From: a virus
DNA length: 64,000 bases
Strand: one strand, 5' to 3'
IMG/VR virus record: IMGVR_UViG_3300025133_000069
Span: 12,430-76,429 of that record
Part shown: piece by piece, positions 2,573-34,006 of the stretch
How the letters are laid out: every line of letters begins with the position of its first letter
Numbering within the stretch: the first letter of the stretch is position 1
Position numbers and translations under genes: made by a program
Notes under the pieces: model-generated
What the model was told of the DNA's origin: nothing
The model's input: the letters and a program-made list of their open reading frames with translations, nothing else
The model's database searches: none

Positions 2573-5500
2573 ATGAAAAAAAGAACTATCACCAAATCTC
2601 AATTAGAAAATGTCATCTCTGAACGCTTGACTGGTCTATTGCAGGAAGAAAAAATAATTCCTGTAAAGAAAAGAACTATCACTAAGTCCCAATTAGAGAG
2701 CGTTATATCCGAACGTTTAACAAATCTCTTAAAAGAATCGAATCCTGTATTCAAAAATCCCGCCACAGGGCGTGTGAGGGGTGGGCGCACTGTGACGTCG
2801 GCCCGTGGCCTGGAGTTCGTCGAGGCTCACCTGACACACAGAGGGATTGCGCGCGGGCTCCAATTCGGAGTTAGTACAGAGGGACCACCCGAACAGTATT
2901 ATTTAAAGGGTAATAATCCCAAAGATTGGCATTGGCCAACTTTAACGAATCGTGATTATGAAAAAGCGCTGCAGGCGGCCCATGACTTCCTGGGCTTCGA
3001 ACCAATGCATGGAGAGGTTGGTCCCCATGGGGAGAAGCGCCGGATGATGCTCGCTGAAATGAGTTCGAAACAATATTGGACAAGAGTTGCAGCATTACAG
3101 GATAAATATGAAAAGATATTACGTGAACACTTTGAAAAACATCCACTTGTTATTAAAGATCCAGTTCTCCGTCTCGGGAAAACGGCGCCGAGCAAAGCTG
3201 CCAAGCGCGCGGCGAGGAGAAGACTTGCTAAGGCGGGGCTCGCAATTGAGAAGCCGGCATATCATGCAGCGCGAACAGGGGCTGAGCAGCTACCAGCGGT
3301 TAAACCGGGCCGCGGCCAACCAGCCAGCAAAGCTGAAATAAAGAAGATGACAATTCCCGAACTAAAAGCTAAGCTGACGGGTATGGATGAAACGACACTT
3401 GCAAAACATCAATTGTCAGCAGAAGAAATAGTTAATGAAAGAATTAAACGAATGTCTTTTGGCAGAGCAATAATTCAAGCAGATTCAGAGTGGATTGCAA
3501 CAAACTTTATGAAAACAAAAGTGCCTGTTATACCACCATTCTTTGAATTAATGAAACTTGAATCTGAATGGAAAATACGTGAATTTTATCGCGTCATGGG
3601 GAGCCGCGGTCAGCGGAAGGGACGTTTGGATCTGCGGCCGGGTGATATTCTTGAAAATAAAGTAGAAACGCTTCGAGACGCTATGCGTTGGCTTAGTGGA
3701 ATGGAAGAGATACCAGGGATGAAGGCCGGGATGACTGGAGAAAAATCCGCCATTGAATTAAGGAAAGAAATTTGGAAAGGTAATATATCTGGTGAGTTAG
3801 AAGAAACAAAGCGTCAAGATCGCCATGGCGCGCACAGGAGCGAAATAGAAAAACAGTTACACACACTTGAGAAGCAAACGAATGCACTTGAAAAAGAGCT
3901 GGGGTATAAGAAGGGTAAAATATGGGAAGAATTATTATTAGACTATAAAGAAACACCGGTAATAGAGAAAGAAACAAGAGGAGAGCGTCGAAAAAGAGGA
4001 TATCCAGAAAAGAAAGAAAAAAAAGGCACGCCCCAAGCAAAAAAGAAACTTCCAAGAAGAGTACGTACACTTGAACAACCAGGATGGCGTTATAGATCAG
4101 ACCTGAGATTTCACGCCACGGCTCCGACTGCCTCCCCTAGAGAAATGTGGTCACCAACTTTGCAACGCTCTCCTTCAGCTGAGCCTTCAATGCCTGGTAA
4201 AAGGTATTTTGGAAACGAACAATTCCAGATAATGACAGCCTTACGTTCTTTAGGTGATCCTATAATTTTACCAGATGAACTTTGGAATAATTTATATGGA
4301 GAAGGACCAATTTGGGGTGTTAAACTTCTAGGTACCCCGACGGAGCCGGTCCTGCGCGAAGAAGGATTATTTGGTAGATTTCCCAGTGGCCGCGGCTTGC
4401 CTGAAGAAATAATATCAGATTTAACATTTTGGAAAGATAATACGATATCAGAAAGTAAAGTTCGAGAACGTTTCAAACGTCTGCCTGAAGTGTTTGGTAC
4501 TTTAAGAGACCTTCGGATTGCGGCGCCACAGGCCTGGCTCCCGAAAAAAATTGCAGATGTAGTATCTCCCAGGGGTCGTGACCCGGGTAGGTATGTTACC
4601 GATAAAATAATAAATGAATTTATTGATGCGTATTCTTTGAACTTGGGAACAACAGGAACTTCTGATATTCTTATTAGTGAAGATGGAACTATAAGATTTC
4701 TTGATAAAAAAGGCCGTCTGTCCCCCACAAAAAAATTGACACGAGGGAAGAATTTATTACAAGGTAAATTACTAGAAGAAGTCGCAGATCTCATTGAAGA
4801 ATTACATAAAGAAAGTGTAGCCAAAATAACAAGAGAAGAAGTTGTAAAAGCAACCCCAAGAGAAGGTGACCACCTTCATTACCGTATTAACTTGGAGCGC
4901 GAACAGAGAGTCCGACCGACCTGGGGGGCAGGCGAGACGTTTGAGAGCAGGTATCCCGGTGGGAGCGCGCATCCGCCGCGAACTGATCGAGGTGCTGGTA
5001 TGCGTCCCAAATGGGAAAGATGGCATATAGGTGAACAGTATGTTCCAGATCTATTTCATGGAGAACGATTTGATATCGAAGGCACCACGGTCGGCGACCG
5101 GTCGTCGCGCCTGCAGCAGCTTTTGGCAATGCGAGGAGAAGATTCTGTTTGGGATGCTAAGCCATTAGAAAATTTCAAAAATGACCCACGTCTCGGGAAA
5201 CAACCTATAGGCCCCGATGGTAGGCCGATGGACTCCAACGCGTGGCATGATCAAGTGGTTTACCATTGGCCAGAGGAGGTGGCGGCCCGAAGAGCTCTGC
5301 GGGGCGCGGCTATAAACATGCGTAATAAGATACGTTATAGAGATGGGATCCCCCCGACGTCGGGGGGACGGCTCGTGATTGGTGCCAACTTACTTGAAGA
5401 AGCCAAGTTTGGACCAAGAGATATGAAATTAAAAGATGGCACAATTATATTCTTAGAAGATTATCTAATGCTAAAAGAAGGCGAGGGTATCTTGATGGGA

Positions 5501-8500
5501 GAATATGGGAAAAGATATGTTTATCCTATCCCCGTCAAAGCAAGGGAACACCACCCGGGAACCCAGCGTTGGGCAGAAAAAAACCTTCCCGATACTCCGT
5601 TGGCCCGGGCAAGGGCCCGGGCTATAGCCATAATAGGAGCAAATGCGTATGAAGGCGTTTATATGCCCTCCGGACCGTCTGGCGAAGGATCCCGTGTGGG
5701 CAACGCCTGGTACTTCGAGTCTGGCATGGAATCGTCGGTGTGGGAAACGAACCCTAACTGGATTGCGATTGAAGGTGATTCAACGTGGATGCACCAAGGC
5801 CAAATTGATAGGATTAAAAAACATATATTGGGAACTGAAAATGGTACGGCAAGATGGAATAGAGTAGAAAGGGATGTAGTACACTGGTTAAAGGATGGCA
5901 TACCAAGTTATATAAAAGAAGAGTGGGTTGAAACAAATAAAAAAATCATCTACCTCCACCGGCGCCGGCTGAGCACGGCGTACGGTCCGGACGTGGATCG
6001 TGGGCGCGTGAGACGCGAAGTTGTGAAACTGATCGGGGAGATAGAGAAGGGTGAGGGTCCAGGTGTCTTACGAGGCGCACAGATCAGTCCTATGACTCCC
6101 ACGTGGAAGGCACCGAATGGAGCATTGATCCACGCAGGATTTCGAGATGATATGTACGAACTTTTGGAACTATATGATCTTGAAAGTTCACATAAAATAG
6201 AAAAAGAGATTTTAACGCAAAAAGCATATAGTGACGCAATAAAAAATATGGAAAGACGTTGGCTTACTAATAACTTCAAAGAACAATCTGTATATTTTGG
6301 TGGTCAATCGCGAGCGGAGAAGAGTTTGGGGCGTGCGAGGTTTGAGGTTACCTTGAGCCCTGAGGCGCGTATTCTGTGGGTATTGCAAGATAGAGATTTA
6401 TTAGAAATTATAGAATTTATGAATGAAAATCCAGGGGAGCGTGTTTTCATACCTAGAATAGTACAACATTATTGGGGATCAGTTAGTACTTATCCTACAG
6501 GAAGAGCACTGCCAGAAGAAATATTAAATGATGTGAGGCTTTTAATCCATGATAAAATGACATCTGTTGAAGATGCCTTGCTACACACTGAACGGCGATG
6601 GGGTGGCGGCAAAACTACAAAAGAATGGAAGAACGATAAATTATGGGAAGAATATGTTAGAGAAAATATGCGCCTTGGAAGTAGGGGGTTTGGAGTTTGG
6701 CAAAAGGGTATTTGGGATCCCGAGACCGGTGATCCTGTATATGATGAGAAGGGTAAACAGAAATTTCGGCTAGAAGAAATTCATGATGAAGGCAAAGCTA
6801 AAAGAATAAAGAAGATTAATGAAGCAAGAGCGGAGAGACGGCGCGCAGCGGCGGAGAGACGGCGCCCGTCGCCCCAATCGCCGCGCCTCGACGTGACGTC
6901 CGGGCGTGGACTCGTACCTTCGGGTTTGCACGCGGAGCCCGTGCCCGGGTTTGGCGCGAGGTCTAATATAGTTTTGGCGACCGGCGAAATTGTGTCGGTA
7001 AATGTTGAATGGGCCCGGGAGTGGATTGAATCTGAATTATGGAAAAAATTAAACCCTGGTCGCGTGGAACCGCTCCTTAACCCCGTGGGGGAAGTGGAAA
7101 AAATGTATAATCAGCTTCTTCTTTATCCTGATTTGCCTGAGGGGGCAGCAAGAGTAGTACTCACTAACAAAGCTATAGCGGTTGAAGAACAAGTGTTGAT
7201 CAATTTGATGCAAGGCCATACGAGCAGAGAATTTCACTTATTAGAATTTGAAAAGATTCTACGTCGGGAAATGATTCCACAAGTAGAAGCTGGAAAAATT
7301 TCGCCGGCTAAAGCTGATGCTTTGGCGGCGAGATTGTCGCGACAGGCATGGGAAAAAGGCCTGAATCGTCATATAATCCAATTGGAAATTCGAGCGCGGT
7401 CGGAAGCTGGAGCGTATGAAAGTGCAGAAGCATTAATGGCAAGAATTAATAATTCTGGCAATATACCTCCTTCTGTAAAGAAGGCTCTTAAGGGGGTTAA
7501 AAAAACTTTGCCTCCAGCAATGTTTATTTTGATAGGATACGGCATGTGGGAGATTTGGTATGATCCTGGAGCTGATCTTACCGATGATGATACAGTTTTT
7601 GAAAAAATTAGGCAGACTTCAATTCTGTTGGATCCAACAATTTTTGGTGTTCAAGCAGTTACAGGTGTTGTTGACATATTATATGAAGACAATCCAGAAT
7701 GGCGCTGGGATGATCCGTGGCATCTTATTCCTGGACATATTCTTTGGAGTCGACTTGGCAAAATACGTGAACCGGAAGAAGCAAAACGAAAAAGTAGAGA
7801 ACACGCAGAGGCCGGCAAGGGCGTCCTCGATTGGGTTAGCAGGTATCGACCATGGTGGGGACAGCCGACAGGTCGAACGTTTGGAGGTGAGCATGCGCCT
7901 GGCGGGGCACATGTCCTGGGCCAGCATGATCGCTATGGTGGTATATCACCAGGTACATTAAAATTCTGTTTAGACCAACCAGATGATGGATGGTGTAAAG
8001 AATATGCACCAAATATATGGCCAGAATTTTGTTTGCAATATCCTGAGAGCGCAGAATGTAAAGATATCAAAGAGAAGATTAAGAATTATCGACAAGATAT
8101 ATTTGACAGATTTATGGATCCAATTAAAGAAAAAGCGCTAGAAGAATTAATAGGTGAACCATTTGAGCTTCCAGAAGATATATGTAAAGATGCAAAAGGA
8201 AGTACAGAAGAAGAGAAAAAGAAAGATTGTAAACGTCTTAAAAATTTAGCGTTCAAGCAACATCTTATGAAAGGTGTTTTTAAACAAATAGAACAAGATA
8301 AGGAACTCACACCTAAACGAGCATTTAAAAAACTATTAGATGAATGGACGTCTATGACCCTTGAAGGATGTAAAGATATTCCTGGCAATCCATGTAAAGC
8401 TGGATCTACCACATTACCCTTTAAGGATTGGGATGCCCGCGCGGCCAAAAAGAGATTGCCTAAACCTGTAGCTGAATTAGGACCTGAAGAAGAATTTGAA

Positions 8501-8860
8501 ATGACTTTCGAACCAGATCCAATGGTGCCTCAAGATTATGATCCTGATACAGGGAAACCGAAAGCTAGACCTAAACCATCAGAATATGATCCAAAGGGCA
8601 AGGAACAAATGAAACGTAGAAGACAAAGCATACAAAAATATAAAGAAGCAACAGTCAGAACGTTGGTTAAACGCATGTTAACAGGCGTTCGTGGAGCAGA
8701 GAGGGAAAAGAGAATAAAGCAAATAAAAGATTTGCAAAAAATTGACTTACCGTGGGATATGAAATGGCCAAGTAAACAGAGGTCCGTAAAAGAAAATCTT
8801 AATCTAGATATTGCAGAAATCGCAAAAATAATAATTGAAGAAACTAAAAAACTTTTCTAA
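2573..8860 (+). CDS. giant (2095 aa) leader-tagged hypothetical protein with GC-mosaic body
   Basis: Uninterrupted ORF; duplicated leader KKRTITKSQLExVISERLTxLLxE; hydrophobic helix near 7510-7560; no recognisable catalytic domain. Confidence 0.8.
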   Translation: MKKRTITKSQLENVISERLTGLLQEEKIIPVKKRTITKSQLESVISERLTNLLKESNPVFKNPATGRVRGGRTVTSARGLEFVEAHLTHRGIARGLQFGVSTEGPPEQYYLKGNNPKDWHWPTLTNRDYEKALQAAHDFLGFEPMHGEVGPHGEKRRMMLAEMSSKQYWTRVAALQDKYEKILREHFEKHPLVIKDPVLRLGKTAPSKAAKRAARRRLAKAGLAIEKPAYHAARTGAEQLPAVKPGRGQPASKAEIKKMTIPELKAKLTGMDETTLAKHQLSAEEIVNERIKRMSFGRAIIQADSEWIATNFMKTKVPVIPPFFELMKLESEWKIREFYRVMGSRGQRKGRLDLRPGDILENKVETLRDAMRWLSGMEEIPGMKAGMTGEKSAIELRKEIWKGNISGELEETKRQDRHGAHRSEIEKQLHTLEKQTNALEKELGYKKGKIWEELLLDYKETPVIEKETRGERRKRGYPEKKEKKGTPQAKKKLPRRVRTLEQPGWRYRSDLRFHATAPTASPREMWSPTLQRSPSAEPSMPGKRYFGNEQFQIMTALRSLGDPIILPDELWNNLYGEGPIWGVKLLGTPTEPVLREEGLFGRFPSGRGLPEEIISDLTFWKDNTISESKVRERFKRLPEVFGTLRDLRIAAPQAWLPKKIADVVSPRGRDPGRYVTDKIINEFIDAYSLNLGTTGTSDILISEDGTIRFLDKKGRLSPTKKLTRGKNLLQGKLLEEVADLIEELHKESVAKITREEVVKATPREGDHLHYRINLEREQRVRPTWGAGETFESRYPGGSAHPPRTDRGAGMRPKWERWHIGEQYVPDLFHGERFDIEGTTVGDRSSRLQQLLAMRGEDSVWDAKPLENFKNDPRLGKQPIGPDGRPMDSNAWHDQVVYHWPEEVAARRALRGAAINMRNKIRYRDGIPPTSGGRLVIGANLLEEAKFGPRDMKLKDGTIIFLEDYLMLKEGEGILMGEYGKRYVYPIPVKAREHHPGTQRWAEKNLPDTPLARARARAIAIIGANAYEGVYMPSGPSGEGSRVGNAWYFESGMESSVWETNPNWIAIEGDSTWMHQGQIDRIKKHILGTENGTARWNRVERDVVHWLKDGIPSYIKEEWVETNKKIIYLHRRRLSTAYGPDVDRGRVRREVVKLIGEIEKGEGPGVLRGAQISPMTPTWKAPNGALIHAGFRDDMYELLELYDLESSHKIEKEILTQKAYSDAIKNMERRWLTNNFKEQSVYFGGQSRAEKSLGRARFEVTLSPEARILWVLQDRDLLEIIEFMNENPGERVFIPRIVQHYWGSVSTYPTGRALPEEILNDVRLLIHDKMTSVEDALLHTERRWGGGKTTKEWKNDKLWEEYVRENMRLGSRGFGVWQKGIWDPETGDPVYDEKGKQKFRLEEIHDEGKAKRIKKINEARAERRRAAAERRRPSPQSPRLDVTSGRGLVPSGLHAEPVPGFGARSNIVLATGEIVSVNVEWAREWIESELWKKLNPGRVEPLLNPVGEVEKMYNQLLLYPDLPEGAARVVLTNKAIAVEEQVLINLMQGHTSREFHLLEFEKILRREMIPQVEAGKISPAKADALAARLSRQAWEKGLNRHIIQLEIRARSEAGAYESAEALMARINNSGNIPPSVKKALKGVKKTLPPAMFILIGYGMWEIWYDPGADLTDDDTVFEKIRQTSILLDPTIFGVQAVTGVVDILYEDNPEWRWDDPWHLIPGHILWSRLGKIREPEEAKRKSREHAEAGKGVLDWVSRYRPWWGQPTGRTFGGEHAPGGAHVLGQHDRYGGISPGTLKFCLDQPDDGWCKEYAPNIWPEFCLQYPESAECKDIKEKIKNYRQDIFDRFMDPIKEKALEELIGEPFELPEDICKDAKGSTEEEKKKDCKRLKNLAFKQHLMKGVFKQIEQDKELTPKRAFKKLLDEWTSMTLEGCKDIPGNPCKAGSTTLPFKDWDARAAKKRLPKPVAELGPEEEFEMTFEPDPMVPQDYDPDTGKPKARPKPSEYDPKGKEQMKRRRQSIQKYKEATVRTLVKRMLTGVRGAEREKRIKQIKDLQKIDLPWDMKWPSKQRSVKENLNLDIAEIAKIIIEETKKLF

Positions 8861-9612: not shown

Positions 9613-9905
9613 AAATAGGTTTTCGAAAATACGACGATGGTTTAAAAAATAAAATCTTTCTTGATAATAAACTTATCGGTGAAGTAGGACTAAACATTTG
9701 GAATCAAAAATGGAAGATGACTCCATATTTTAGTTTTAGTCCGATGGAACAAGGAATTTTATATTCTGAATATGGATCCTGTTATAAAGCAGGGAAAGCT
9801 TTAGTAAAATTATATTCTGATACTTATATGGTATTTGAAGAAGACGATTTAGATGATACGCAAGAGATAGATATGAGGAGTATAATTAAACGTCGTCGTC
9901 CGTGA
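9609..9905 (+). CDS. hypothetical protein
   Basis: 98-aa ORF translationally coupled to its neighbours. Confidence 0.7.
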   Translation: MKIGFRKYDDGLKNKIFLDNKLIGEVGLNIWNQKWKMTPYFSFSPMEQGILYSEYGSCYKAGKALVKLYSDTYMVFEEDDLDDTQEIDMRSIIKRRRP

Positions 9906-9916
9906 GGATTCAAAGT

Positions 9917-11812
9917 ATGAAAAAAATAGCGCTAGCTTTTATGATATTTACTTTTTTGCAAATCGGTTGCAGCAATGTAGAACAAGGAGCTGGTTCTAAT
10001 GATTTAGATGTTGCGGAAGATATCTCTGAAGATGTACACAAAGAAGAAATAGTTATTGTACCTTGGGAAGAAGAGGAACCCGAACCAGATCCAGAATGTA
10101 TTGACTGTGCAATGTATTTCTGTCCTCCATTAGATGCAATTTGGAGAAAAGAAATATGCATGAATATATGCGATGATCCTCCTACACTTTACTCTGAATC
10201 TGAATGCATACAATATATGGAGTGTGATCCAACGCAATATCTTATTGACGAAGTTGAATGTATGACTGAAGATGGATATCCTGGTACCCAAGAAAAGGTT
10301 TGTAATAAAGGGTTAATACAATATACAGACTGTACTACTGCCTGTGAAGAAGAGTTGTGTAATTATGAAGACGACGACTGTGACGGTGAGATTGACGAAG
10401 GACAATTAAACGACTGTAACGAATGTGGGATTGTTCCTACAGAAGAATGTAATGGCGTCGATGATAATTGTGATGGGGATACAGACGAAGATTTAATTCA
10501 ACCCTGCATCACAGCATGCGGTGCGGGATATGAAATGTGTTATGAGGGCAATTGGATATCTTGTACGGCGCCGCCGGAGAGTGATGAGATATGTGATGGC
10601 TTGGACAATGATTGTGATGGTCAAATAGACGAAAACTTAGATTGTGTATGTACCATACAAGATATTGGAGTGTTGTTTCCATGTCAAGATGATCCTCTTA
10701 TATGTGGTCAAGGATATAAAACTTGTCAGTGTTTAGACCCTGATTGTATAGATCTTGTAATGACAGAATGTTATGCTTTGTGTTACTGGGCGCCTTCTGG
10801 CGATCCAAACGCTGTTTGTGACCCACTGATTGGTATGGAATTAGCACAGGAAAAATGTAATAATTTTGATGATAATTGTAATCAAGAGATTGATGAAGAT
10901 CTTTATGGCGCTTGCTACACAGGGCCAGAAGGCACCCTTATGGTTGGTATTTGTGTTCCTGGAGAGATGACTTGTGATGCTGGGACTTGGGGAAATTATG
11001 ATGAGGAAAATTTTATTCCATATTATTGTAAAGATGAAATAGTACCTCAAGATGAAATATGTAATGGATTAGATGATGATTGTGACGGTATAGCAGACTG
11101 GGGTGAAGAGATGAAAGAGACCGATGTCCTCTTCATCGTTGATTGGTCTGGATCGATGGGTGATGAGATGAGCGCTGTTATGATAGCATTAAATCAGTTT
11201 GCACAAAATTTCAGCGATGAGGATGTTATTAAGTGGGCATTTATGCGGGGCCCAGTGGCCGTGTTACCTTCAACTTATGATGAACGTTTGGAGCTAATAC
11301 AAGATTTAATTGGATTTTCTGATTATTTAGTTTCATTAGCTGGAATGGATACCAGCATGCAATCAATGAGTACTGCTTACGAGATGTTATTGGACGCGAT
11401 TTATATATCAGTCCATAATATAACAGCTACGTTACCACAACCTATCTCCAATTTTGTTTGGCCCGGGGCAGCTAACTTTGGTACAAGTGTAATTGAATCG
11501 GAGCCTCCATTACAAAATTTCGATATCAGTTGGCGTTCGGGGGCTGATCGCATCATCATTGTTTTTAGTGACGAAGTACCGCAAAGTTATTTAGAACCAA
11601 ATTTAAGTATAGAAGAAGTCAAAACAGCTGTTTCCGGGACACCTCAACTTAAATTATTTACATTTTCTAGGACGTCCGGGTCGTCCCAGTGGGAAGATAT
11701 AGCTGTTGCCGGCAATGGCGCTTGGTACAAACTTACAAATAATCCTACAGAAATGTATGCTAGCTTAATGGAAATTCTTGATGAAATATGTAAAGGTGAT
11801 ACAAATGAATAA
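9917..11812 (+). CDS. lipoprotein with MopE-related Cys/Asp repeats and C-terminal vWA domain
   Basis: Lipobox LQIGC; repeats ELCNYEDDDCDGEIDE, EECNGVDDNCDGDTDE, EICDGLDNDCDGQIDE, EKCNNFDDNCNQEIDE, EICNGLDDDCDG; MIDAS motif DWSGSM and later FSDE. Likely start is the ATG at 9917 (track gives 9902). Confidence 0.85.
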   Translation: MKKIALAFMIFTFLQIGCSNVEQGAGSNDLDVAEDISEDVHKEEIVIVPWEEEEPEPDPECIDCAMYFCPPLDAIWRKEICMNICDDPPTLYSESECIQYMECDPTQYLIDEVECMTEDGYPGTQEKVCNKGLIQYTDCTTACEEELCNYEDDDCDGEIDEGQLNDCNECGIVPTEECNGVDDNCDGDTDEDLIQPCITACGAGYEMCYEGNWISCTAPPESDEICDGLDNDCDGQIDENLDCVCTIQDIGVLFPCQDDPLICGQGYKTCQCLDPDCIDLVMTECYALCYWAPSGDPNAVCDPLIGMELAQEKCNNFDDNCNQEIDEDLYGACYTGPEGTLMVGICVPGEMTCDAGTWGNYDEENFIPYYCKDEIVPQDEICNGLDDDCDGIADWGEEMKETDVLFIVDWSGSMGDEMSAVMIALNQFAQNFSDEDVIKWAFMRGPVAVLPSTYDERLELIQDLIGFSDYLVSLAGMDTSMQSMSTAYEMLLDAIYISVHNITATLPQPISNFVWPGAANFGTSVIESEPPLQNFDISWRSGADRIIIVFSDEVPQSYLEPNLSIEEVKTAVSGTPQLKLFTFSRTSGSSQWEDIAVAGNGAWYKLTNNPTEMYASLMEILDEICKGDTNE

Positions 11813-12940: not shown

Positions 12941-15112
12941 ATGAAATCATATCACGATAATTGGCGTAATTTTTTAACAGAGGCGACCCCAATAAGACAA
13001 GACGATGGCGGTCCTGTCATGGTGGATAGTAGTTCGCTAGAGGAAGGCAGATATACTGCTGAAGCCTTGACGAGAGTGGCCGAAGACACAGGGGTTAACC
13101 CAGCCTGGCTATGGGGCTTAATGGGCGCGGAATCAGGCGGCGGTAGAGGTAAATTTAGAGGTGGAAAATGTCAGGCGCGCGCATTCAATAATTATTTGCT
13201 TAAAGATCGCTGGGTGACGTACGAAAGTGGAAAGCGCGTTTTTAAAAGAGGCTATACCACCATATATAATGAAGATATTAAAGCCGTAAGAAATGCCGGC
13301 GTGAGAACTCGTGGTCAAACTTATGGTGATTCTCGCAAAGATCGATCTGCCGATTCACAGTTTCATAAATGTTTTAAAGTTGCGCCCAAGAGCGCAATTG
13401 CGGTTGCTGCCTGGGGCGCCAATCAAGTAATGGGTTTCAACATTAAAGAAATGTGGGAAAATGACCCACAAGGCTTCTATGATCGATGGTATGGTAACAA
13501 TGGAGCAAACCAGTGTGCGATGAGTGAAGAAGCAAGTAGGGTTTATAATGCAGCGCCGCGGCGGAATGCGAAGCTTCAGAGATACTCTAATAATGCTGTT
13601 TTTGGGGGAATCAATGGTGCATATAGAAGTTGGCAGAGCATTGTACAAATATATCATGGGTCATCGCCCGGAAGTGAAAAAAATACAAGATATGTAAGTT
13701 CGGCCAGAAAAGCAGCAAAACAATTTATAGCAAAGTTCCCCAACCAGATGAGACAGTGGTGGAAAGATCGTGGCAAAAGCGAAGAAGAAATCAATACTTT
13801 TTTCAGAAGATGGAGGGTTAATCCCGGCGAGGCCTCAGTTGCAACACCAGCTTCTCCAGAATTGCCAATTGAGCCTGTATCAGAAATCAAACATAGAAAA
13901 ATTCTTGTAATTGGTGATTCCAACACAGCTCGTATGAAAGCAGCTCTAACCCAAAAATATGGCGGGGATCCAAATACTGAAATAAAAGTTTGGGGCAGGG
14001 GTGTTGAAGATGGTGTGGCTACAACGACGAAATATATCTATAAAAATATAAAAGATCCAAATTCTAAATTAAAAAAACTCATTAATAACTTTAATCCAAC
14101 TCATATTGTTATAGGTTCATTAGGTGGAAATGATTGGGCATATGCTTGTCCCGGTCGAGAAGAGACACTACAAAGTTATATTAAAAATTATGTAAAACCA
14201 CTTATGATATATATTAAAGCGCACAATGGATCATGGGGGGGTTTACCGCCGGCTGGGCCGGAGGCGACAAGAAAGTGTAAAGGTAAGTCTATACTTTTTC
14301 AACCAATGAGGGCTAAAATTAATGATAGATATAAACAAGTTGCAGAAGACATAGGCTTAGAATATCGCGATGTTATAGGTTCAGGCTTTTTCAATCCTCC
14401 AGGTGATAAATATCATATTCCACAAAAAAAGTGGATAGACTATTTTAAAGATAATACTCTTGTGAGAAAAAAAATAAAAAAGAAATTCCCATTACGTTTA
14501 GATGTACCTGGTACAATTGTAGTTAAAACACATCCTCCACATGGAACTTCATGGGAAAGACCCTTCCCAGAAAAAGGATTACCATGGGGCATGAAGTGGC
14601 CTGAAGATCAAATCAACTTAGATATATCACAAATAGATGATTTCGAAGTAGCTTGTCATTTCTGGAACAATCCTGAACATGAAAGTTTCTGGGGTTTTAC
14701 AAATTATAAAAAGAAAGGTATGATTCTTAACAGAGAAGATCCATATGGTGAGATCCATGATGCGATAGAGGAATTATGGGAAGAGGCGATCGCTAGTGTA
14801 ACTGAAGATTGCCCTGAAGGTACAAACTGCCGCGTTGATACAACTCCCTGGGTCACTAAACAAATTAACAAACGTATTAAAAGAGGTGATTTAGAAAGTC
14901 CCGTAATTACTCATTGGAAGACAGAAGATATTATTGAACTTTTTAATAAAACAAGAAGTCGTTATCCAACACGCTGGAAGCCTTGGTTTAAAGCAGGAAT
15001 GTGTGATGGCGACTATGAATCAAAAATTAAAAGTCTTCTCGACCAAGAAGAAATAGAAGAGAGAGAAAGAGAAAAACACCGAAAACTATTCCGGCGTATG
15101 ATGAACCGATAA
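12941..15112 (+). CDS. leader-tagged N-acetylmuramidase-like (DUF3380 type) + SGNH multidomain protein
   Basis: Leader MKSYHDNWRNFLTE; muramidase-like AESGG...AAWGANQVMGFN...YHG; SGNH motifs ILVIGDSN, SLGGND, DKYH. Confidence 0.7.
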   Translation: MKSYHDNWRNFLTEATPIRQDDGGPVMVDSSSLEEGRYTAEALTRVAEDTGVNPAWLWGLMGAESGGGRGKFRGGKCQARAFNNYLLKDRWVTYESGKRVFKRGYTTIYNEDIKAVRNAGVRTRGQTYGDSRKDRSADSQFHKCFKVAPKSAIAVAAWGANQVMGFNIKEMWENDPQGFYDRWYGNNGANQCAMSEEASRVYNAAPRRNAKLQRYSNNAVFGGINGAYRSWQSIVQIYHGSSPGSEKNTRYVSSARKAAKQFIAKFPNQMRQWWKDRGKSEEEINTFFRRWRVNPGEASVATPASPELPIEPVSEIKHRKILVIGDSNTARMKAALTQKYGGDPNTEIKVWGRGVEDGVATTTKYIYKNIKDPNSKLKKLINNFNPTHIVIGSLGGNDWAYACPGREETLQSYIKNYVKPLMIYIKAHNGSWGGLPPAGPEATRKCKGKSILFQPMRAKINDRYKQVAEDIGLEYRDVIGSGFFNPPGDKYHIPQKKWIDYFKDNTLVRKKIKKKFPLRLDVPGTIVVKTHPPHGTSWERPFPEKGLPWGMKWPEDQINLDISQIDDFEVACHFWNNPEHESFWGFTNYKKKGMILNREDPYGEIHDAIEELWEEAIASVTEDCPEGTNCRVDTTPWVTKQINKRIKRGDLESPVITHWKTEDIIELFNKTRSRYPTRWKPWFKAGMCDGDYESKIKSLLDQEEIEEREREKHRKLFRRMMNR

Positions 15113-15706: not shown

Positions 15707-17977
15707 ATGAAAAATTTAATTAAAGAAAACTTACTGGCTGTTAGTAACAAAACTTACCTTAAAGAAAATTTATTGGCTGTTAATAAAGAAACTGCCGATC
15801 TTCTTCTTGAAGTACAACTTGACGCAGAACAACAGGAATGGCGTAAAAAAATAAATGCTATGGCTCCACCAGATGTGGTGAAAGGAGGCAATGGCTCGCT
15901 TACGGAACCGCAATGGAAACAAGCAAGAAGGATGGTCTATAAAAAGGACTGGGAAGGAATAAAAAAGATAATTGAGAGGGGAACGTTCCAGAAAAATGTA
16001 CCTGGTGCGGCTGCAACATACAAAGGCGGCGCGGTTAAGCAGTGTCCAAAAGGAGAATTTAGGTCAGGAGGTGAATGTGTTAAACTTCCTCCAATTAAAA
16101 GTTTCGCGGACGCGGACGCGGTGGATGCTTACGTGAAAAGAGTAGGGCGCCGGCCGTCCTTTATATTCTTAAAATCATTAAAAAAAGTTTATAGATGGGA
16201 TGAGGAAGCAAAGAAATGGACTGAGGCTCCTCAGCTCACAGCTGCTGTTGCAGCGGACCCAGCTGTTGTTTCAGCTCCTGCTGCTGCACCGACAGCAGCA
16301 GCAGATATCCAAAAGAACTTTATTAAAAAATGCGGACCAGGGAGCAAAGAACATGGCACTCCGGTGTGTAACCAACTTAATAAATTGACAGCGCTGTGGT
16401 CCGTGCATGCCTTCGACTTCACCCATGTGAAGGACGGGGCCATATATAGAAAAGGCTTAGCAGACTTTGATCAAACTTTAGGAACTCATGGCCATATAAA
16501 AGCTGCACAACTTCTTGCAAGCCTGTTTAAGGAAGGAGAAGCTAAAAACAAAGCAAATGCAATTTTAGAAGAAATTGGAACAATTCCAATTGCTGCTGCT
16601 CCGACAGCTGAGCCTGCCGATAAAGGCGAATTAATAGGAGTTCCTCTTCTAGGTTATCAGTTTAAATCAGATGAACCTTGGAAAGTAGAGAAATTGGAAA
16701 TTTGGAATAGGCCGGATACAAAGAATAGAGAAGGCAAGATTGTTAAAAAAGGAATTAATTTGCTTAAATATGGGGGCGCCGAATTTTCTTTAGATTCTCA
16801 TTTGAAAGAAACAATGGGCTTTGCTTCTTGGGCAGCTTATAAAGGACTTAATAAAGAAGATCTTAAAAATAGAAATATCAAACCTTTCCATCTTGTCTTT
16901 ATCTTTTTGGAGTATAGAAAGAATAAGAGAGCGGAAGCCGGAGAATTTATTTCTATAAATCTTAATGAGCCTAATATCGTTGAGAGAGACAAGATCGTAG
17001 CGAACCGAATTCATCAAACTAGATTAAAATTTAAAGATTTAGTGAACACAGAAATTCTTGATGGCTATACCAATCATAAAACAATAAAAGATATAGTAAG
17101 AATGCACTTTGAGGGAGCAGATACAGTTCAATTTACTATCGGTGGTGGTGGCACAATACAAATTCCCAAATCGGCGAAGGCGGCCTTTGATCCAGAGGGC
17201 GGAAAAGGTAGTTATTTTACTCGTGCTGAGTTGACACTAGCTAAAAGAATCGGTATCAGTGCTATTCCGGTGAAGGGGGAAGTTACGCCTGGGACGCCGG
17301 TCGGTAAAGGGCCCGAAGCGCCGGTGCTCGGGCCGCCTGCGCAGGATACCCCGCCAGGCGAGCAGCCCGGGCCCGACGAGGAACCCAAGGCCGACGAGGA
17401 ACCCAAGGCCGACGAGGAACCCAAGGCCGACGAGGAGCCCTCAGAAGGGAAACCAATATTAGAGGATACTCCTTATATGAAGGCAAGAGAAATAGTTAAG
17501 AGCAATACTAGAGAGACGGCAAAGAAGTCTAAGTTAAGAAAAATTGTTAACAGCCTGGCACCTCGATTTCTTGGAGGAGATACCGATAAAAAAGTTAAAG
17601 GAGGCAGAGGCTGGTTTACAGAAAAGGACTGGAGATTGGCGAGGCGAGCGCTTAAGCGCAACAAATTCAAGGAAGTAGCTCAGCTTATTCTTGACAGGGC
17701 TCAAACTGGTTCCGAGAATTCAGGTCCTTCGATGGACAATCTCTATGACCAAGCCAAAGATGAAGCAAAAAGATTATTAAGAGATAAACCGGTTCCGGCG
17801 AGCTGGTACTCTGACGATGACGAGGACGAGGAGGCAGAGTGGGGAGTTGTGCCTGACCCACGGATGGTGGGGAGAATGTTGCTCGCAATAAAAGATAAAG
17901 ATGATATTTATAGAATGCCCGAGCCAGGATGGAAGTGGCTGAATTCGGAGAAAAAGGAGAAAGTAGTAAAGAGATAA
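15707..17977 (+). CDS. leader-tagged hypothetical protein with internally repeated domain and Pro/Ala/Glu linkers
   Basis: 756 aa; N-terminal KENLLAV twice then LLLE; DEEPKA repeats. Confidence 0.8.
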   Translation: MKNLIKENLLAVSNKTYLKENLLAVNKETADLLLEVQLDAEQQEWRKKINAMAPPDVVKGGNGSLTEPQWKQARRMVYKKDWEGIKKIIERGTFQKNVPGAAATYKGGAVKQCPKGEFRSGGECVKLPPIKSFADADAVDAYVKRVGRRPSFIFLKSLKKVYRWDEEAKKWTEAPQLTAAVAADPAVVSAPAAAPTAAADIQKNFIKKCGPGSKEHGTPVCNQLNKLTALWSVHAFDFTHVKDGAIYRKGLADFDQTLGTHGHIKAAQLLASLFKEGEAKNKANAILEEIGTIPIAAAPTAEPADKGELIGVPLLGYQFKSDEPWKVEKLEIWNRPDTKNREGKIVKKGINLLKYGGAEFSLDSHLKETMGFASWAAYKGLNKEDLKNRNIKPFHLVFIFLEYRKNKRAEAGEFISINLNEPNIVERDKIVANRIHQTRLKFKDLVNTEILDGYTNHKTIKDIVRMHFEGADTVQFTIGGGGTIQIPKSAKAAFDPEGGKGSYFTRAELTLAKRIGISAIPVKGEVTPGTPVGKGPEAPVLGPPAQDTPPGEQPGPDEEPKADEEPKADEEPKADEEPSEGKPILEDTPYMKAREIVKSNTRETAKKSKLRKIVNSLAPRFLGGDTDKKVKGGRGWFTEKDWRLARRALKRNKFKEVAQLILDRAQTGSENSGPSMDNLYDQAKDEAKRLLRDKPVPASWYSDDDEDEEAEWGVVPDPRMVGRMLLAIKDKDDIYRMPEPGWKWLNSEKKEKVVKR
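17373..17436 (+). repeat. 18-bp tandem repeat CCGACGAGGAACCCAAGG x3.5 (DEEPKA)
   Basis: Exact copies at 17373, 17391, 17409; partial copy at 17427. Confidence 0.95.
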
Positions 17978-19701: not shown

Positions 19702-20640
19702 ATGAAAGTTGATGGTATCTTACAGATTAACGATGAATTAAATTCAATTCTTTGGAAAAATGAACAACTTTCTCCTATAGTTCATGGTAGATTATTAGAA
19801 ATTGCTGAAAATTTCTTTTCTAAACTTGATTTAGGGGTTGATTTAGAAGATATCACAATTACCGGGTCTATGGCAAATTATAATTGGACTAAATATTCGG
19901 ATATAGATCTTCATATTGTAATCGACTTTTCAGAAATTGATGATAATAGAGAACTTGTAAGAGAATTTTTTAGCTCTAAAACATCTAATTGGAATAAAAA
20001 TCATAATATTTCATTTTTTGGACATGAAATTGAAATTTATGTACAAAATCTTAATGAAAAACACTTCTCAACTGGAGTGTATTCCCTGTTAAATAACGAA
20101 TGGAGTATTGTACCAACCAAGGTTGATCCAAAAGTCGATGTAGAGATGGTGAAAAGAAAAGCGAACTCTCTTATTGACATGATTGAACGCGCAGAAGACA
20201 TGTACCTTGACAGGGATTATAGCGATGCTTATGATTTCTCATTAAGATTGATAGAGAGAATCAAAAAGTTTCGACAATCAGGACTAGAGGGTGTAGGGGA
20301 GTACTCGAATGAAAACCTGACCTTTAAATACCTAAGGAATCACAAATATACCGACATCCTTTTTGGCATCCGAAACAACTCTTACGACAGAATGATGTCT
20401 TTAGACGGCGATCATGATAGAAAATTCAAAATTTTCATACAAAAAGAAGATGCTCCGGAAGAATCTGGGTTTCATAGGCTTAATGAGATAGGAAAGTTTC
20501 AAAAATCAGTGAGAAGAAGGCACATGCGTCAGAAAAAACGATTATTAAGGCGCGGACCACAAAATCCTGGGGGCGCCTTTCCGAAAAAGCCTAGTTATAA
20601 GAGATCAAAGTCCTCGCCGGCGGGTTTTGGAGGGACTTAA
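19702..20640 (+). CDS. Pol-beta-superfamily nucleotidyltransferase (large-phage type)
   Basis: ITGSMANYNWTKYSDIDLH carries the GS...DxD motif; third acidic residue in EIEIYVQ; basic C-terminal tail. Confidence 0.8.
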   Translation: MKVDGILQINDELNSILWKNEQLSPIVHGRLLEIAENFFSKLDLGVDLEDITITGSMANYNWTKYSDIDLHIVIDFSEIDDNRELVREFFSSKTSNWNKNHNISFFGHEIEIYVQNLNEKHFSTGVYSLLNNEWSIVPTKVDPKVDVEMVKRKANSLIDMIERAEDMYLDRDYSDAYDFSLRLIERIKKFRQSGLEGVGEYSNENLTFKYLRNHKYTDILFGIRNNSYDRMMSLDGDHDRKFKIFIQKEDAPEESGFHRLNEIGKFQKSVRRRHMRQKKRLLRRGPQNPGGAFPKKPSYKRSKSSPAGFGGT

Positions 20641-24728: not shown

Positions 24729-25614
24729 ATTACGAAGATTAATTCGTGGTGCAATTAAAATCCGAGAACGAAAATTAAAAACGCAAGATCTCAATAAATT
24801 AGAAGATGAACAGAAGCTTCGTAAAATAGTACGTTATTTTCTAAAAGAAGCAAAAGATGTTGATGCGTCAACAAATCCTGTTGGTTATGGTTCAACAGCT
24901 TTAAACGCGGTAGCAACTGCTTTTAACGATATTCTTAAAACTGTCAAAGAGGGATTTCGCTTTTTGGAAGAGCCAGAAGAAAGAGAATCTTTTAGAATCC
25001 ATACTTTAGAAAAAATGAAAAGTATTCTTGATCACCTAGAAGCATTAGATTTTCAAGGCGCCGAAGCAGCGGAAGGGGGAGTTGTAGGTGAAGATAGCAT
25101 TGCTGAGCAAGAAAGAGATGAAGAAAAAATAGAAATTGATATTGAGAAAGTTGATGATCCGGATGCGAGAATAATTCCAGATTTTGAGAAAGAAAGGTAT
25201 ACTCCAGATGAAGAAACAGATGAAGAAACAGAAAAAAAAGAATTTGGAGAGTTTTCTATTTCTGAGTTGGACGTAACTGGAGCGAGAAAAGCTTTTGAGA
25301 TGTTTAATAATTCAAATATACAAGATACCATTACTAAAAATAGAAAAACTATTGAAGATAAGCCGGGCGCAGCAAAAGAATATAGAGAGTTTGTTTTATA
25401 TAATATAGATTTGTGGTTATTGACTTATGAAGAAGAATATGCCAAGGAACTTGGGCAAGAACCAGCGTTCACAGAGACAATTATGGACAGGCCAGAATCT
25501 GCTGTTGAAATAGGTAAAGGTAGACAATACGGCCCTCCAGGAGCTGGAGAGGTAGCAGCTGGCATGGAAGAACCTACTGAGGCAGAGGAAGGTTTGCCTC
25601 CGTTAGGGATGTAA
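24697..25614 (+). CDS. acidic hypothetical protein with LRxxIR/LKE leader-like repeats
   Basis: GGAGG RBS, ATG at 24697; EFKLRRLIRGAI and EQKLRKIVRYFLKE. Confidence 0.75.
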   Translation: MTKKELMQEFKLRRLIRGAIKIRERKLKTQDLNKLEDEQKLRKIVRYFLKEAKDVDASTNPVGYGSTALNAVATAFNDILKTVKEGFRFLEEPEERESFRIHTLEKMKSILDHLEALDFQGAEAAEGGVVGEDSIAEQERDEEKIEIDIEKVDDPDARIIPDFEKERYTPDEETDEETEKKEFGEFSISELDVTGARKAFEMFNNSNIQDTITKNRKTIEDKPGAAKEYREFVLYNIDLWLLTYEEEYAKELGQEPAFTETIMDRPESAVEIGKGRQYGPPGAGEVAAGMEEPTEAEEGLPPLGM

Positions 25615-26094: not shown

Positions 26095-26443
26095 AAGAAG
26101 CAGATTTAAGAGGCCTGATCATGATTATTATAGTATTGCAAATAAACTGAAAGCTGAAGGCAAAATCAATGAAAAATTTGAAATTATGCTTTCATCTCTT
26201 ACTTTAGAAGAAATAATAGGTCTGAGATTGGAGCTAGCTGCTAAGTCTGTTAATTATAAGCTTTATGGCTTAAATATTTGGAGTTCTGTTCCAAATATGG
26301 TACGAGATGGTATATTAAAATATGTGTATTCTGCAGCTCGTACAAAAGGAGAAATGGCTAGTTTTTTGGGTATAGATAAAAATACACTCAAAAGATTGCT
26401 CAAGAAATATGATATTACTAATTATTTTAGTAAAGAGGGGTAA
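26081..26443 (+). CDS. protein with C-terminal Fis-like helix-turn-helix
   Basis: TKGEMASFLGIDKNTLKRLLKKY. Confidence 0.65.
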   Translation: MWESKRSRFKRPDHDYYSIANKLKAEGKINEKFEIMLSSLTLEEIIGLRLELAAKSVNYKLYGLNIWSSVPNMVRDGILKYVYSAARTKGEMASFLGIDKNTLKRLLKKYDITNYFSKEG

Positions 26444-26447
26444 TTTC

Positions 26448-27146
26448 ATGAAAATAACAAAATCACAATTAAAACAAATTATTAAAGAAGAACTGAAAAG
26501 TGTTTTAAGTGAACAATTGCCACGTCGCTCGGCTGAGCGCCGGCGACAAGACCGCGAGAAGTTTAAAAAGTGTCTTAAGACTTTCAATCCTGAAAAAGAA
26601 GGTACTAATTTTTCGTATGAAAATATAGCTTTAAATCTTAAAATGGCTTTAATCCTTAATGATCTTAGAACATCGACGAACAGCGGAAAATCTCTCAAAA
26701 AATGGAAAATTGATCCGTTAATAAGTTTAAATCCCGGGCATGTTGAAGAAATTAAAGAACGTTATATAGAAATGCGTTGTCAGGATCCTGATCAGAGTCC
26801 TGCTAGAGTTCGAAGAAGGGCTGGTGCAATTGGTGGCGATAGTAGCTTTTTTAGGGACCAGAGCAGTGGCCTGGGTGCTGGCGTGCGGCGATTTCATAAG
26901 GGCCCGCTGTCGCGCGGGTCCATAACTAATATTTTTGATGGTTTTGGGGATCCCGGCGGATATTCGCCTTTGAGAGATGAGCTTAACGATCTTCTAGAAA
27001 AAACAGGTGCATGGAAAAAAATGCGCATGGATGACCCTGTACGTAAACAATATAAAAATTGGATTCAAACAAGATTAGGGCGATGTGAAAAGGGGGGTGG
27101 AAAAACCCTCCCAGATGGTAGTTGTTCGAAAGATGTAGTGCATTAA
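26448..27146 (+). CDS. leader-tagged cassette protein 1 (MKITKSQLKQIIKEEL)
   Basis: ACTAATTATT at 26417 and GAGGGG RBS put the start at 26448, not 26409. Confidence 0.85.
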   Translation: MKITKSQLKQIIKEELKSVLSEQLPRRSAERRRQDREKFKKCLKTFNPEKEGTNFSYENIALNLKMALILNDLRTSTNSGKSLKKWKIDPLISLNPGHVEEIKERYIEMRCQDPDQSPARVRRRAGAIGGDSSFFRDQSSGLGAGVRRFHKGPLSRGSITNIFDGFGDPGGYSPLRDELNDLLEKTGAWKKMRMDDPVRKQYKNWIQTRLGRCEKGGGKTLPDGSCSKDVVH

Positions 27147-33940: not shown

Positions 33941-34006
33941 CTCAGTTGGTAGAGCATCGGACTCTTAATCCGCAGGTCGTAGGTTCGATCCCTACAGGGG
34001 GTACCA
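33931..34006 (+). tRNA. tRNA-Lys (anticodon CUU)
   Basis: GCCCTCT/AGGGGGT acceptor stem, anticodon loop CT-CTT-AA, GGTTCGATCC T-arm, CCA end. Confidence 0.9.

Follow-up and report, generated by a model that had tools for sequence, protein, structure and literature searches.

The GC-rich patches that punctuate the 2095-aa gene P0001, and certain other genes in the 64,000-nucleotide window of phage DNA analysed here, are best read as phage-native sequence that was gained in frame, in a lineage-specific manner, by the predicted coil or linker stretches of leader-tagged virion "cargo" proteins and of one giant ORF. The pattern is real at synonymous sites, and in dinucleotide signature, G>C skew and palindrome excess the patches are phage-like, not host-like. 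As to how such additions arise, we tentatively favor a model in which linker sequence that is GC-rich and prone to form hairpins is born within the phage itself and then decays.

GC-rich tracts in P0001

P0001 encodes an ORFan with a duplicated N-terminal leader, a body predicted to be mostly helical and a conserved Cys-rich C-terminal part. It has no match in Pfam or PHROG, only about 5 relatives among 1.84e9 protein representatives, and a predicted fold of low confidence (mean pLDDT 41). The initial annotation had described sharp, in-frame GC-rich tracts in this gene, and all eight that it listed are GC-rich (58-69% GC, GC3 0.56-0.88) relative to their 60-nt flanks (GC 0.30-0.48), with the frame unbroken:

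2761-2870: GC 0.68, GC3 0.69
3170-3330: GC 0.64, GC3 0.57
4895-5010: GC 0.66, GC3 0.58
5080-5130: GC 0.67, GC3 0.88
5545-5750: GC 0.58, GC3 0.57
5955-6100: GC 0.62, GC3 0.62
6830-6990: GC 0.69, GC3 0.72
7805-7935: GC 0.63, GC3 0.56

Patch borders were set by an unsupervised 2-state HMM, which recovered these tracts. The features of the gene are as follows, with identities and gaps relative to the homolog P0002 and all GC patches called by the HMM:

2573-8860, + strand: P0001, 2095-aa ORFan gene holding the patches, an unbroken ORF
2576-2737, + strand: tandem type-A leader in two copies (KKRTITKSQLE..ISERLT), AT-rich; direct repeat D7, 72 nt, 74% identity
2759-3056, + strand: GC patch 1, GC 0.57; 24% identity, 24% gaps
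3161-3328, + strand: GC patch 2, GC 0.64, largely missing from P0002; 75% gaps
4894-5386, + strand: GC patch 3, GC 0.56, predicted coil; 18% identity, 33% gaps
5349-5368, strandless: perfect 20-nt palindrome TCCCCCCGACGTCGGGGGGA within patch 3; self-reverse BLAST match, E=2.6e-6
5530-5801, + strand: GC patch 4, GC 0.57; includes GGCCCGGGC twice (5602, 5614)
5953-6138, + strand: GC patch 5, GC 0.62; 78% gapped
6824-7024, + strand: GC patch 6, GC 0.66, GC1/2/3 = 0.69/0.63/0.67
7802-7941, + strand: GC patch 7, GC 0.64; linker of variable length that reaches its maximum in this phage

Pure amino-acid composition was rejected as the source of this variation, as the spread of GC3 goes far beyond a synonymous-shuffle null. 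Across P0001, GC in 30-codon windows has an SD of 0.101 (0.055 +/- 0.004 in 1000 codon shuffles), the SD of GC3 is 0.149 (0.088 +/- 0.006, about 10 SD over the synonymous-shuffle null), and GC12 and GC3 are correlated at r = 0.62 (0.18 +/- 0.09 under synonymous shuffling); at 4-fold sites GC3 drops from 57% in the quartile of high GC12 to 28% in the lower half. Within patches GC3 is 0.56, whereas the amino-acid mix alone would give 0.30 and a context model predicts 0.315 (observed, 0.560). The elevation of GC3 marks a nucleotide-level phenomenon, and it likewise excludes a plain disordered linker with protein-level composition alone. The GC profile is flat in phoH and in two large uniform ORFs, in agreement with the earlier observation that conserved genes are comparatively uniform.

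Distribution, repeats and variability of the patches

The contig holds 31 patches, and 6744 of their 6746 nt lie within ORFs; with 14% of the contig intergenic, about 4 intergenic patches were expected and 0 were found (P ~0.008). The patches retain coding periodicity (G1 = 0.43), and the genes that bear them are almost only leader-tagged ORFs and one giant ORF (54138-63998), while enzyme genes are uniform, so that their description as a trait of cargo genes stands. Related IMG/VR phages show the same pattern. Outside P0001 the HMM placed patches as follows:

898-975, + strand: GC patch in leader-A ORF 656-1123
12978-13182, + strand: GC patch in leader-B ORF 12941-15112
17267-17449, + strand: GC patch, GC 0.72, in ORF 15707-17977; self-similarity z=27.6
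17789-17886, + strand: second GC patch in ORF 15707-17977; self-similarity z=6.7
24634-24692, + strand: short GC patch where ORFs 21870-24728 and 24649-25614 meet
26774-26921, + strand: GC patch in leader-A ORF 26409-27146
28493-28776, + strand: GC patch, GC 0.69, in leader-B ORF 28165-29220
29869-29963, + strand: GC patch in leader-B-like ORF 29758-32013
58293-59971, + strand: four-patch cluster in giant ORF 54138-63998 (58293-58632, 58768-58888, 59031-59254, 59541-59971)
62381-64000, + strand: three more patches in the giant ORF (62381-62465, 62634-62831, 63664-64000)

Clear internal duplications occur in a minority of the patches. Both micro-duplications quoted in the initial annotation exist exactly as claimed (GCGGAGAGACGGCGC at 6830 and 6851, GGCCCGGGC at 5602 and 5614); the first belongs to a 15-mer duplicated at 21-nt spacing in patch 6 (AERRRAA / AERRRPS; internal self-similarity z=8.4). 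That such duplications are frequent in patches is another matter, as short exact repeats are not significantly enriched in the patches of P0001 (4 vs 2.4, P=0.23), and among the patches as a whole they are only weakly enriched once the one tandem array, an 18-mer repeated 3.8 times at 17373-17440 with 98% identity in patch 17267-17449, is set aside (13 vs 8.7, P=0.11). Internal self-similarity exceeds z=2 in 6/30 patches and 1/29 controls, and most patches have no detectable internal repeat (median z=0.33). Short perfect palindromes show an enrichment of 2.6-5x in the patches and of 1.4-2x across the phage lineage, whereas host DNA is depleted of them (0.72-0.83x); besides the 20-nt example of patch 3, P0001 carries GGCCGCGGCC at 3308 (patch 2) and CCGGCGCCGG at 5959 (patch 5). 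No element-wide inverted repeat was found in the patches, whose RNA fold z-scores are near 0. Template switching or duplication, as proposed earlier, is thus supported weakly and in part, by the palindrome excess and the 6/30 patches with internal duplications.

Alignment to a homolog bears out the suggestion that the patches are the variable sites. Relative to P0002, the patches of P0001 have 36% gaps and 21% identity, compared with 8% and 42% outside them (Fisher p=5e-20), an indel contrast whose polarity cannot be set because all homologs belong to one clade. The patches are thus less conserved than their surroundings, and they show the low conservation and frequent indels of fast-evolving linker or loop segments. 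RVGNAWYFESGME and QPTGRTFGGEHAPGGAHV are absent from homologs of P0001, as is a 13-aa segment of patch 4 from two of them. The patches are GARP-rich, and regular secondary structure is predicted, on a poor model, for 26% of patch residues and 64% elsewhere; the accompanying difference in pLDDT (28 vs 48) is partly circular owing to alignment gaps. In patch 3 regular secondary structure falls to 0.16 and pLDDT to 24, again in a low-confidence model.

Proposed birth and decay of linker sequence and its alternatives

The model that we consider the leading candidate, though short of an even prospect, begins with new coding sequence that would be born locally, in segments that tolerate insertions, through slippage, tandem duplication and template switching over short range. 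GC-rich, hairpin-prone seeds would then proliferate, with stable misaligned intermediates and copies free of stop codons, and AT-biased point mutation of the phage would wear the new sequence down toward the ~36% GC background, such that patches of differing GC would be of differing ages. Consistent with this, the youngest segments of the giant ORF are the most GC3-rich: GC3 falls from 0.52 in private segments to 0.42 in those shared with a sister phage (0.36 in the sister itself) and to 0.28 in columns common to all three phages. However, the private segments of L146 are without GC3 enrichment (0.34 vs 0.38), which argues against birth and decay. The expanded patch 7 linker of this phage has GC3 0.45-0.55, and its short counterpart in L001 only 0.25-0.33, the background level. 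Inverted copying would be expected to flatten the G>C skew, yet the skew is uniform. Further, copying preserves composition and can amplify GC-rich seeds but cannot make them from AT-rich sequence, which leaves the first GC-rich origin unexplained. We infer both the proliferation bias of GC-rich seeds and the ultimate origin of the first of them, and an extra GC-favoring force, such as nucleic-acid stability selection or biased repair, may be needed.

Such a force could instead be the whole explanation, a rather unlikely but credible alternative in which coil segments are held GC-rich at all codon positions by nucleic-acid-level selection or GC-biased repair, possibly for local duplex or mRNA stability in the linkers of very long genes, or through a GC-adapted host tRNA pool. 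Composition would then be conserved, not sequence. This accords with the hypervariable giant-ORF block at 58293-59971, whose GC and GC3 are high in each of three phage lineages, with peaks at differing positions, at 30-60% amino-acid identity and despite AT drift expected to erase neutral GC3. The exclusively coding location of the patches, their limitation to particular gene classes, their excess of short GC palindromes, their stability among near-identical strains and their much lower absolute folding energy (-30.5 vs -18.6 kcal/mol per 102 nt) also fit. However, structure does not go beyond composition (folding z about -0.1 vs codon shuffles), and an age gradient is seen rather than constant GC3. 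The patches also retain host-rare codons (ATA 0.35, AGA 0.18, TTA 0.12, GAT 0.54), and their codon use is therefore not host-optimized. Strong GC-biased conversion is difficult to reconcile with the leaders, which look gene-converted (near-identical 80-nt starts) yet are very AT-rich, and some equally variable segments are AT-rich as well (P0001 8540-8860; giant-ORF columns ~2190-2230 and 2400-2416).

It is unlikely that the patches were captured, that is, that GC-rich host DNA or DNA of a GC-richer phage of the same host was inserted by illegitimate or homeologous recombination, with the frame kept, and partly ameliorated. The reservoir for such capture would depend on the host, and the basis for its assignment is one feature:

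27803-28151, + strand: phage tmRNA, tag ANDNVEFDYALAA, pointing to a Myxococcota-type host

Judged by the type of this tag, the host phylum is likely Myxococcota. The closest same-length tags sit in loci of 65-69% GC, although tag-bearing loci span 0.44 to 0.73 GC and the host GC itself is accordingly uncertain; myxophages range over 55-70% GC (Mx1; PMC10720576). Fragments of host DNA are stop-free across 50 codons in 25-100% of cases, depending on frame. Patch GC1 and GC2 (0.67 and 0.54) are near those of the host (0.69 and 0.49), with GC3 (0.56) about half-way, as amelioration predicts, and codon usage is ~39% shifted toward host-like. Capture would also fit the age gradient of the giant ORF, whose private segments resemble in-frame coding sequence from a genome of ~50% GC. 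However, recombination with GC-rich host DNA, as raised in the initial annotation, finds no donor: the 5 closest-tag genomes yielded nothing but chance matches in BLASTN (E>=0.04), 401 Myxococcota genomes yielded 0 matches in six frames, 1.84 billion protein representatives yielded family members only, and a donor of the giant-ORF block was found neither in IMG/VR nor among shorter proteins, although the actual host may not be among the genomes sampled. The signature of the patches argues against it as well, as by dinucleotide delta* they are closer to the phage background (0.071) than to Myxococcota DNA (0.130; host samples of equal size differ from the phage by 0.146), and their TpA o/e is 0.77, compared with 0.78 in the phage and 0.44 in the host. 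Captured fragments should be randomly oriented, yet the G>C skew is uniform, at +0.13 in patches as in the phage background, with host fragments ranging from -0.10 to +0.06. Palindromes are depleted in host DNA and enriched in patches, and capture does not predict the lack of intergenic patches.

Targeted hypermutation, by a diversity-generating retroelement or another form of mutagenic rewriting, is very improbable. The patches are hypervariable over long timescales, and a reverse transcriptase could sit outside the contig, which represents ~42% of the genome. However, RVT_1 (PF00078) had 0 matches in the contig and in 4 relatives, among them one 100%-complete genome of 186 kb, in a search that matched control genomes. 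A second, TR-like copy was found for none of the patches when they were compared with one another and with the whole contig (chance matches of 11-28 nt), in line with the earlier report that neither a reverse transcriptase nor a TR/VR pair is visible. In four strain pairs of related phages (99.94-100% identity, different metagenomes), patches differ by 0-1 SNPs and no indels, which lends no support to the proposed active local diversification, and the 31 patches are dispersed in many genes rather than gathered in one C-terminal variable region. Although the record derives from a metagenome, a chimeric assembly of AT-rich phage and GC-rich host reads can be virtually dismissed, as long reading frames are preserved across 31 patches, coding periodicity is kept, and relatives assembled independently from separate samples share identical patches.

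Comparison with known systems

Several known systems share features with the patches. Targets of diversity-generating retroelements, such as Mtd of Bordetella phage BPP-1, have stretches of hypervariable sequence, in frame, within phage genes for structure or host interaction, and the patches are likewise short, in-frame and hypervariable. They differ in lacking a reverse transcriptase and template repeat (on the contig searched) and strain-level variability (among related phages), and in being many and dispersed over many genes rather than forming a single C-terminal variable region. In the model of Lawrence and Ochman, compositionally atypical, horizontally acquired DNA is said to ameliorate; the patches resemble such DNA in keeping GC1 and GC2 with an intermediate GC3, in having the youngest segments most GC3-rich, and in having a plausible GC-rich reservoir in a Myxococcota-type host. 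However, they take up only parts of genes (60-630 nt), are in frame and do not occur outside coding sequence, the searches above gave no donor, and signature, skew and palindromes are phage-like.

The GC clusters of yeast mitochondria and the palindromic elements of Rickettsia are repeat families with a recognizable consensus, present outside genes too and tolerated in surface or loop regions. The patches are similarly GC-rich, palindrome-containing and in-frame in the coding genes of an AT-rich genome, but share no sequence (blastn-short and a repeat search gave no consensus family among the 31) and are never intergenic. Borrelia vls comprises GC-rich, G-skewed antigenic-variation cassettes in an AT-rich genome, sited in variable exposed protein segments. 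As there, the patches are variable segments in which high GC and coding-strand G>C skew, but not sequence, are conserved across lineages; in contrast to vls, the 76-kb contig holds no silent donor cassettes, the patches are mutually dissimilar, and close strains of related phages are invariant. Finally, young or orphan coding sequence that is GC-rich reportedly encodes disordered protein, high GC giving low-structure peptides rich in Gly, Ala, Arg and Pro (attributed to Basile et al. 2017), and the patches are likewise GARP-rich, predicted coil and found in ORFan genes. Whereas that account concerns whole de novo genes with GC tracking the genome, here the GC-rich sequence takes the form of segments inside AT-rich genes.

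In-frame GC-rich patches and the genes that carry them

The abrupt GC-rich tracts that the initial annotation described inside the gene for P0001, a cargo protein with a duplicated N-terminal leader, are confirmed.

2573-8860, + strand: ORF of P0001, 2095 aa

The eight tracts contain 58-69% GC against 30-48% in their 60-nt flanks and correspond to seven segments delimited in this gene by an unsupervised two-state HMM; both micro-duplications also lie exactly where they had been placed. The SD of GC in 30-codon windows is 0.101, which exceeds the codon-shuffle value (0.055 +/- 0.004) by about 12 SD. A flat GC3, named in the initial annotation as a refuting outcome, is not what is seen: along the gene GC3 varies between 0.07 and 0.77, and it reaches 0.56 in patches, where their amino-acid mix with background codon choice predicts 0.30. 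As the patches had been defined by GC, a non-circular control was run on GC12 and GC3 with synonymous shuffling, in which r(GC12,GC3) was 0.62 vs. 0.18 +/- 0.09 (maximum 0.43 in 500 shuffles) and the SD of GC3 was 0.149 vs. 0.088 +/- 0.006. When the gene is ranked by GC12, four-fold GC3 is 57% in the top quartile and 28% across the low half. This signal is absent from phoH and from the large ORFs 21870-24728 and 49017-52715, and enzyme genes are uniform in composition, as had been suggested for conserved genes. Neighbour-dependent mutation bias is not the cause, since a context model of background codons yields a patch GC3 of only 0.315.

Across the contig, the HMM delimits 31 patches that occupy 8.8% of the sequence (GC 0.59 vs. 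0.365 in the background), and 6,744 of their 6,746 nt fall inside ORFs, the intergenic share of the contig being 14%. GC is raised at every codon position (GC1/GC2/GC3 of 0.67/0.54/0.56 vs. 0.48/0.36/0.28) and patch codons still bear the mark of coding sequence (G1 = 0.43); genes overlapping in another frame are rejected, since each alternative frame has 42-122 stops over the patches. Nearly all patch-bearing ORFs start with a MKITKSQLKQIIKEEL-like or MxxLFENWRxF-like leader, joined by the giant ORF 54138-63998 (about 12 of 15 with a leader by eye; Fisher p=0.007 with a regex that under-calls leaders). The two short leader families head otherwise unrelated ORFs.

656, 1152, 1804, 2573, 12941, 26448, 27163, 27545, 28165, 29406, 29758: starts of leader-headed ORFs in the window
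5831, 6618, 8016, 9832, 11110: starts of leader-headed ORFs in locus L002

The leaders at 26448, 27163, and 27545 are near-identical in DNA over ~80 nt, and in form the leaders presumably resemble capsid-targeting propeptides, a likeness drawn from the internal proteins of T4.

The window makes up the final 64 kb of a linear virus record (76,429 nt, completeness ~42% by CheckV) with a GC of 0.385 and essentially all genes on the + strand. Judged from its recognisable genes, the record is a large tailed phage without a close cultured relative; the best match of PhoH has 40% identity.

Upstream of the window: DnaB-like helicase
Upstream of the window: ribonucleotide reductase
GDSL lipase
Muramidase-like protein
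Amidase
Adenylosuccinate synthetase
PIN-PhoH
Three glycosyltransferases

Downstream of P0001, a Cys-rich lipoprotein-like gene (9902-11812) carries repeated CxxxDxDCDxxxDE motifs (PF11617, MopE-type) and is syntenic (1971-2933) in L001, the sole metagenome locus with a P0001 homolog. A perfect-frame 54-nt tandem duplication (38112-38219; 2.0 copies, 98% identical) shortly precedes ORF 38280-39059, in AT-rich sequence.

Variable segments, age and stability

P0001 has no match in Pfam, PHROGs, or ESM-Atlas, and about five relatives, mostly fragments, were found among 5.8 billion indexed proteins and, by HMMER, 1.84 billion representatives; scans of IMG/VR and genome contigs returned none for either P0001 or P0002, its one long homolog (43% identity). 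L001 spans only the C-terminal kilobase of its homolog. Against P0002, patch residues show 36% gaps and 21% identity vs. 8% and 42% elsewhere (Fisher p=5e-20), and GC is anticorrelated with identity (rho = -0.52), which, together with the leader association, bears out the proposed link of the patches to variable sites and cargo genes. RVGNAWYFESGME (patch 5530-5801) is missing from two homologs and QPTGRTFGGEHAPGGAHV (patch 7802-7941) from P0002, while at the latter site L001, the third homolog and one with DNA, is even shorter than P0002. This short linker has raised GC (0.50) with GC3 at background (0.25-0.33); GC3 in the expanded linker of the P0001 gene is 0.45-0.55. Gly, Ala, Arg, Pro, and His are over-represented in patch peptides and Lys, Ile, Leu, and Glu under-represented, and the insertions of P0002 itself tend to be GARP-richer, not significantly (p=0.07). 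In a low-confidence AlphaFold model (mean pLDDT 41, six-sequence alignment) the patches are mostly coil, with 26% regular secondary structure vs. 64% elsewhere and a pLDDT of 28 vs. 48, the latter contrast being in part circular, given the alignment gaps at the patches. The C-terminal extension of P0001 (8540-8860, ~107 aa) is found in no homolog, all of which stop at ...DPMxPKDRNK, and is AT-rich, in contrast to the internal lineage-specific segments.

For ORF 49017-52715, a uniform structural neighbour, IMG/VR contains 19 relatives, of which two share 60% identity with it and the others ~30%, and patches are also present in these relatives of the phage. Aligned across three phages, the giant ORF is hypervariable in columns ~1490-2140, with many gaps and an identity of 0.1-0.4 vs. 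0.6-0.8 in the flanks; each of the three is rich in GC and GC3 within this block, although peak positions differ. With the distant phage L146 as outgroup, GC3 is 0.52 in segments private to this phage, 0.42 in those shared only with its sister (0.36 in the sister), and 0.28 in columns common to all three; the gradient is not seen in the private segments of L146 itself. Relatives of 99.94-100% identity from different samples have patches that match but for 0-1 SNPs, without any indel. The near-identical sets L131/L132, L146/L148/L149, and L137/L134 extend over 14-24 kb in different IMG metagenomes, and these populations are therefore widespread and genetically stable. The identity of patches in such genomes indicates slow turnover, and nothing points to an active mutator.

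Host, donors and candidate mechanisms

Three RNA genes are found in the phage.

27803-28151: phage-encoded tmRNA, tag ANDNVEFDYALAA
32832-32907: tRNA-Ile(UAU), on one side of the adenylosuccinate synthetase gene
33931-34006: tRNA-Lys(CUU), on the other side of that gene

A degenerate scan found the ANDNVE...ALAA tag type at at least 120 genome loci, nearly all Myxococcota; the closest tags of the same length (ANDNVEYDLALAA, ANDNVEHDLALAA) lie in MAG loci of 65-69% GC, and the GC of tag-bearing loci reaches as low as 0.44. The tag type suggests that this ~38% GC phage probably infects a much GC-richer host, and its pairing with a Myxococcota-type tag is a side result of interest in its own right for predicting hosts. 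ATA, the codon of tRNA-Ile(UAU), stands at 0.01 in Myxococcota proxy CDS vs. 0.39 in the phage.

These data allow a tentative model, the one we favour, in which the patches reflect home-grown birth and decay within coil segments. New in-frame sequence would emerge where coil tolerates insertion, GC-rich and hairpin-prone seeds would be preferentially amplified and remain stop-free, and AT-biased mutation would afterwards wear them down. Such a course would account for the age gradient, the phage-native signature, the excess of palindromes and duplications, and the coding-only distribution. However, it leaves the first origin of the GC-rich seeds without explanation. Maintenance of the patches by a GC-favouring force is somewhat unlikely, and would point to an unrecognised nucleic-acid-level constraint in the linkers of very long phage genes.

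It is unlikely that the patches were captured from a GC-rich donor not yet sampled. A GC-rich reservoir is plausible, as the closest tags lie in loci of 65-69% GC and myxophage Mx1 also lies far under its host in GC (55.5% vs. 68.8%; PMC10720576), and host 50-codon fragments are stop-free in 25-100% of cases, depending on frame. Patch codon use is shifted by ~39% to GC-ending codons, which is compatible with either partial amelioration or an in-situ shift; host-rare codons are retained, and host-optimised codons are thereby rejected. The period-3 GC maximum falls at codon position 1, which amelioration and in-frame constraints both favour, so that it does not separate frames of origin. However, BLASTN of the P0001 gene against the five closest-tag genomes gave chance matches only, 401 Myxococcota genomes searched as protein in six frames (stricter first filter) gave no donor, HMMER against 1.84e9 proteins returned family members only, and neither IMG/VR nor shorter proteins yielded a donor for the giant-ORF block. 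The patches are also phage-like, not host-like, in signature: their Karlin delta* is 0.071 to the phage background and 0.130 to Myxococcota loci (for host samples of the same size, 0.033 to host and 0.146 to phage), TpA o/e stands at 0.77 (phage 0.78, host 0.44), and their G>C skew of +0.13 equals that of the phage (host fragments, -0.10 to +0.06). Palindromes occur at 0.72-0.83x in host DNA, 1.4-2x in the phage lineage, and 2.6-5x in patches, including a perfect one of 20 nt at 5349-5368. The earlier proposal of recombination with GC-rich host DNA is thus not upheld. Phages often avoid palindromes; here perfect palindromes of 8-12 nt reach 1.4-2x the Markov-1 expectation in the contig and in L131, L133, L139, L140, and L146, even outside patches.

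Template switching or duplication, also proposed earlier, holds in part: an 18-mer array (x3.8, 17373-17440), the 15-mer pair at 6830 and 6851, and self-similarity (z>2) in 6/30 patches vs. 1/29 controls speak for it, but the median patch contains no repeat, and micro-duplication, significant in only ~20% of patches, is rejected as a general generator. ORF 19702-20640 has weak Pol-beta-type nucleotidyltransferase matches (PF01909, E=1.6e-4), mentioned only since untemplated or template-switching synthesis was one hypothesis considered. Mutagenic rewriting is not supported: neither the contig nor four relatives (one a complete genome) contain a reverse transcriptase, no TR-like copy is found, as had been noted for the window, and near-identical strains of related phages do not differ in their patches, which also rejects a DGR. 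A single mobile-element family (patches share no common sequence), recoding linked to homing nucleases (the contig has no HNH), and RNA structure selected over and above composition (folding z ~0 vs. codon shuffles, although absolute folding stability is higher in patches) are likewise dismissed. Relaxed constraint alone does not suffice, since AT-rich sequence also makes up 8540-8860 and several variable segments of the giant ORF.

Relation to known compositional mosaics

If birth and decay is correct, the patches would be a visible time-stamp of sequence gain in giant phage proteins. A broader and quite improbable proposal is that an AT-rich phage lineage, probably on high-GC Myxococcota, continuously generates or maintains GC- and palindrome-rich inserts in capsid-targeted, leader-tagged cargo, with neither reverse transcriptase nor donor cassette; its engine would be self-propagating expansion of GC seeds or a nucleic-acid-level function of the patches. 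If true, this would constitute an undescribed route of protein-sequence innovation in phages, and a literature search found no description of such in-frame GC patches in phages. Compositional mosaics below the scale of a gene that extend to silent sites are usually taken as the footprint of foreign DNA or of a dedicated mutator. In this phage both readings largely break down though the pattern is strong, and it is peculiar to a single gene class, the N-terminally tagged proteins and a giant virion-type ORF, and common to related phages from independent samples.
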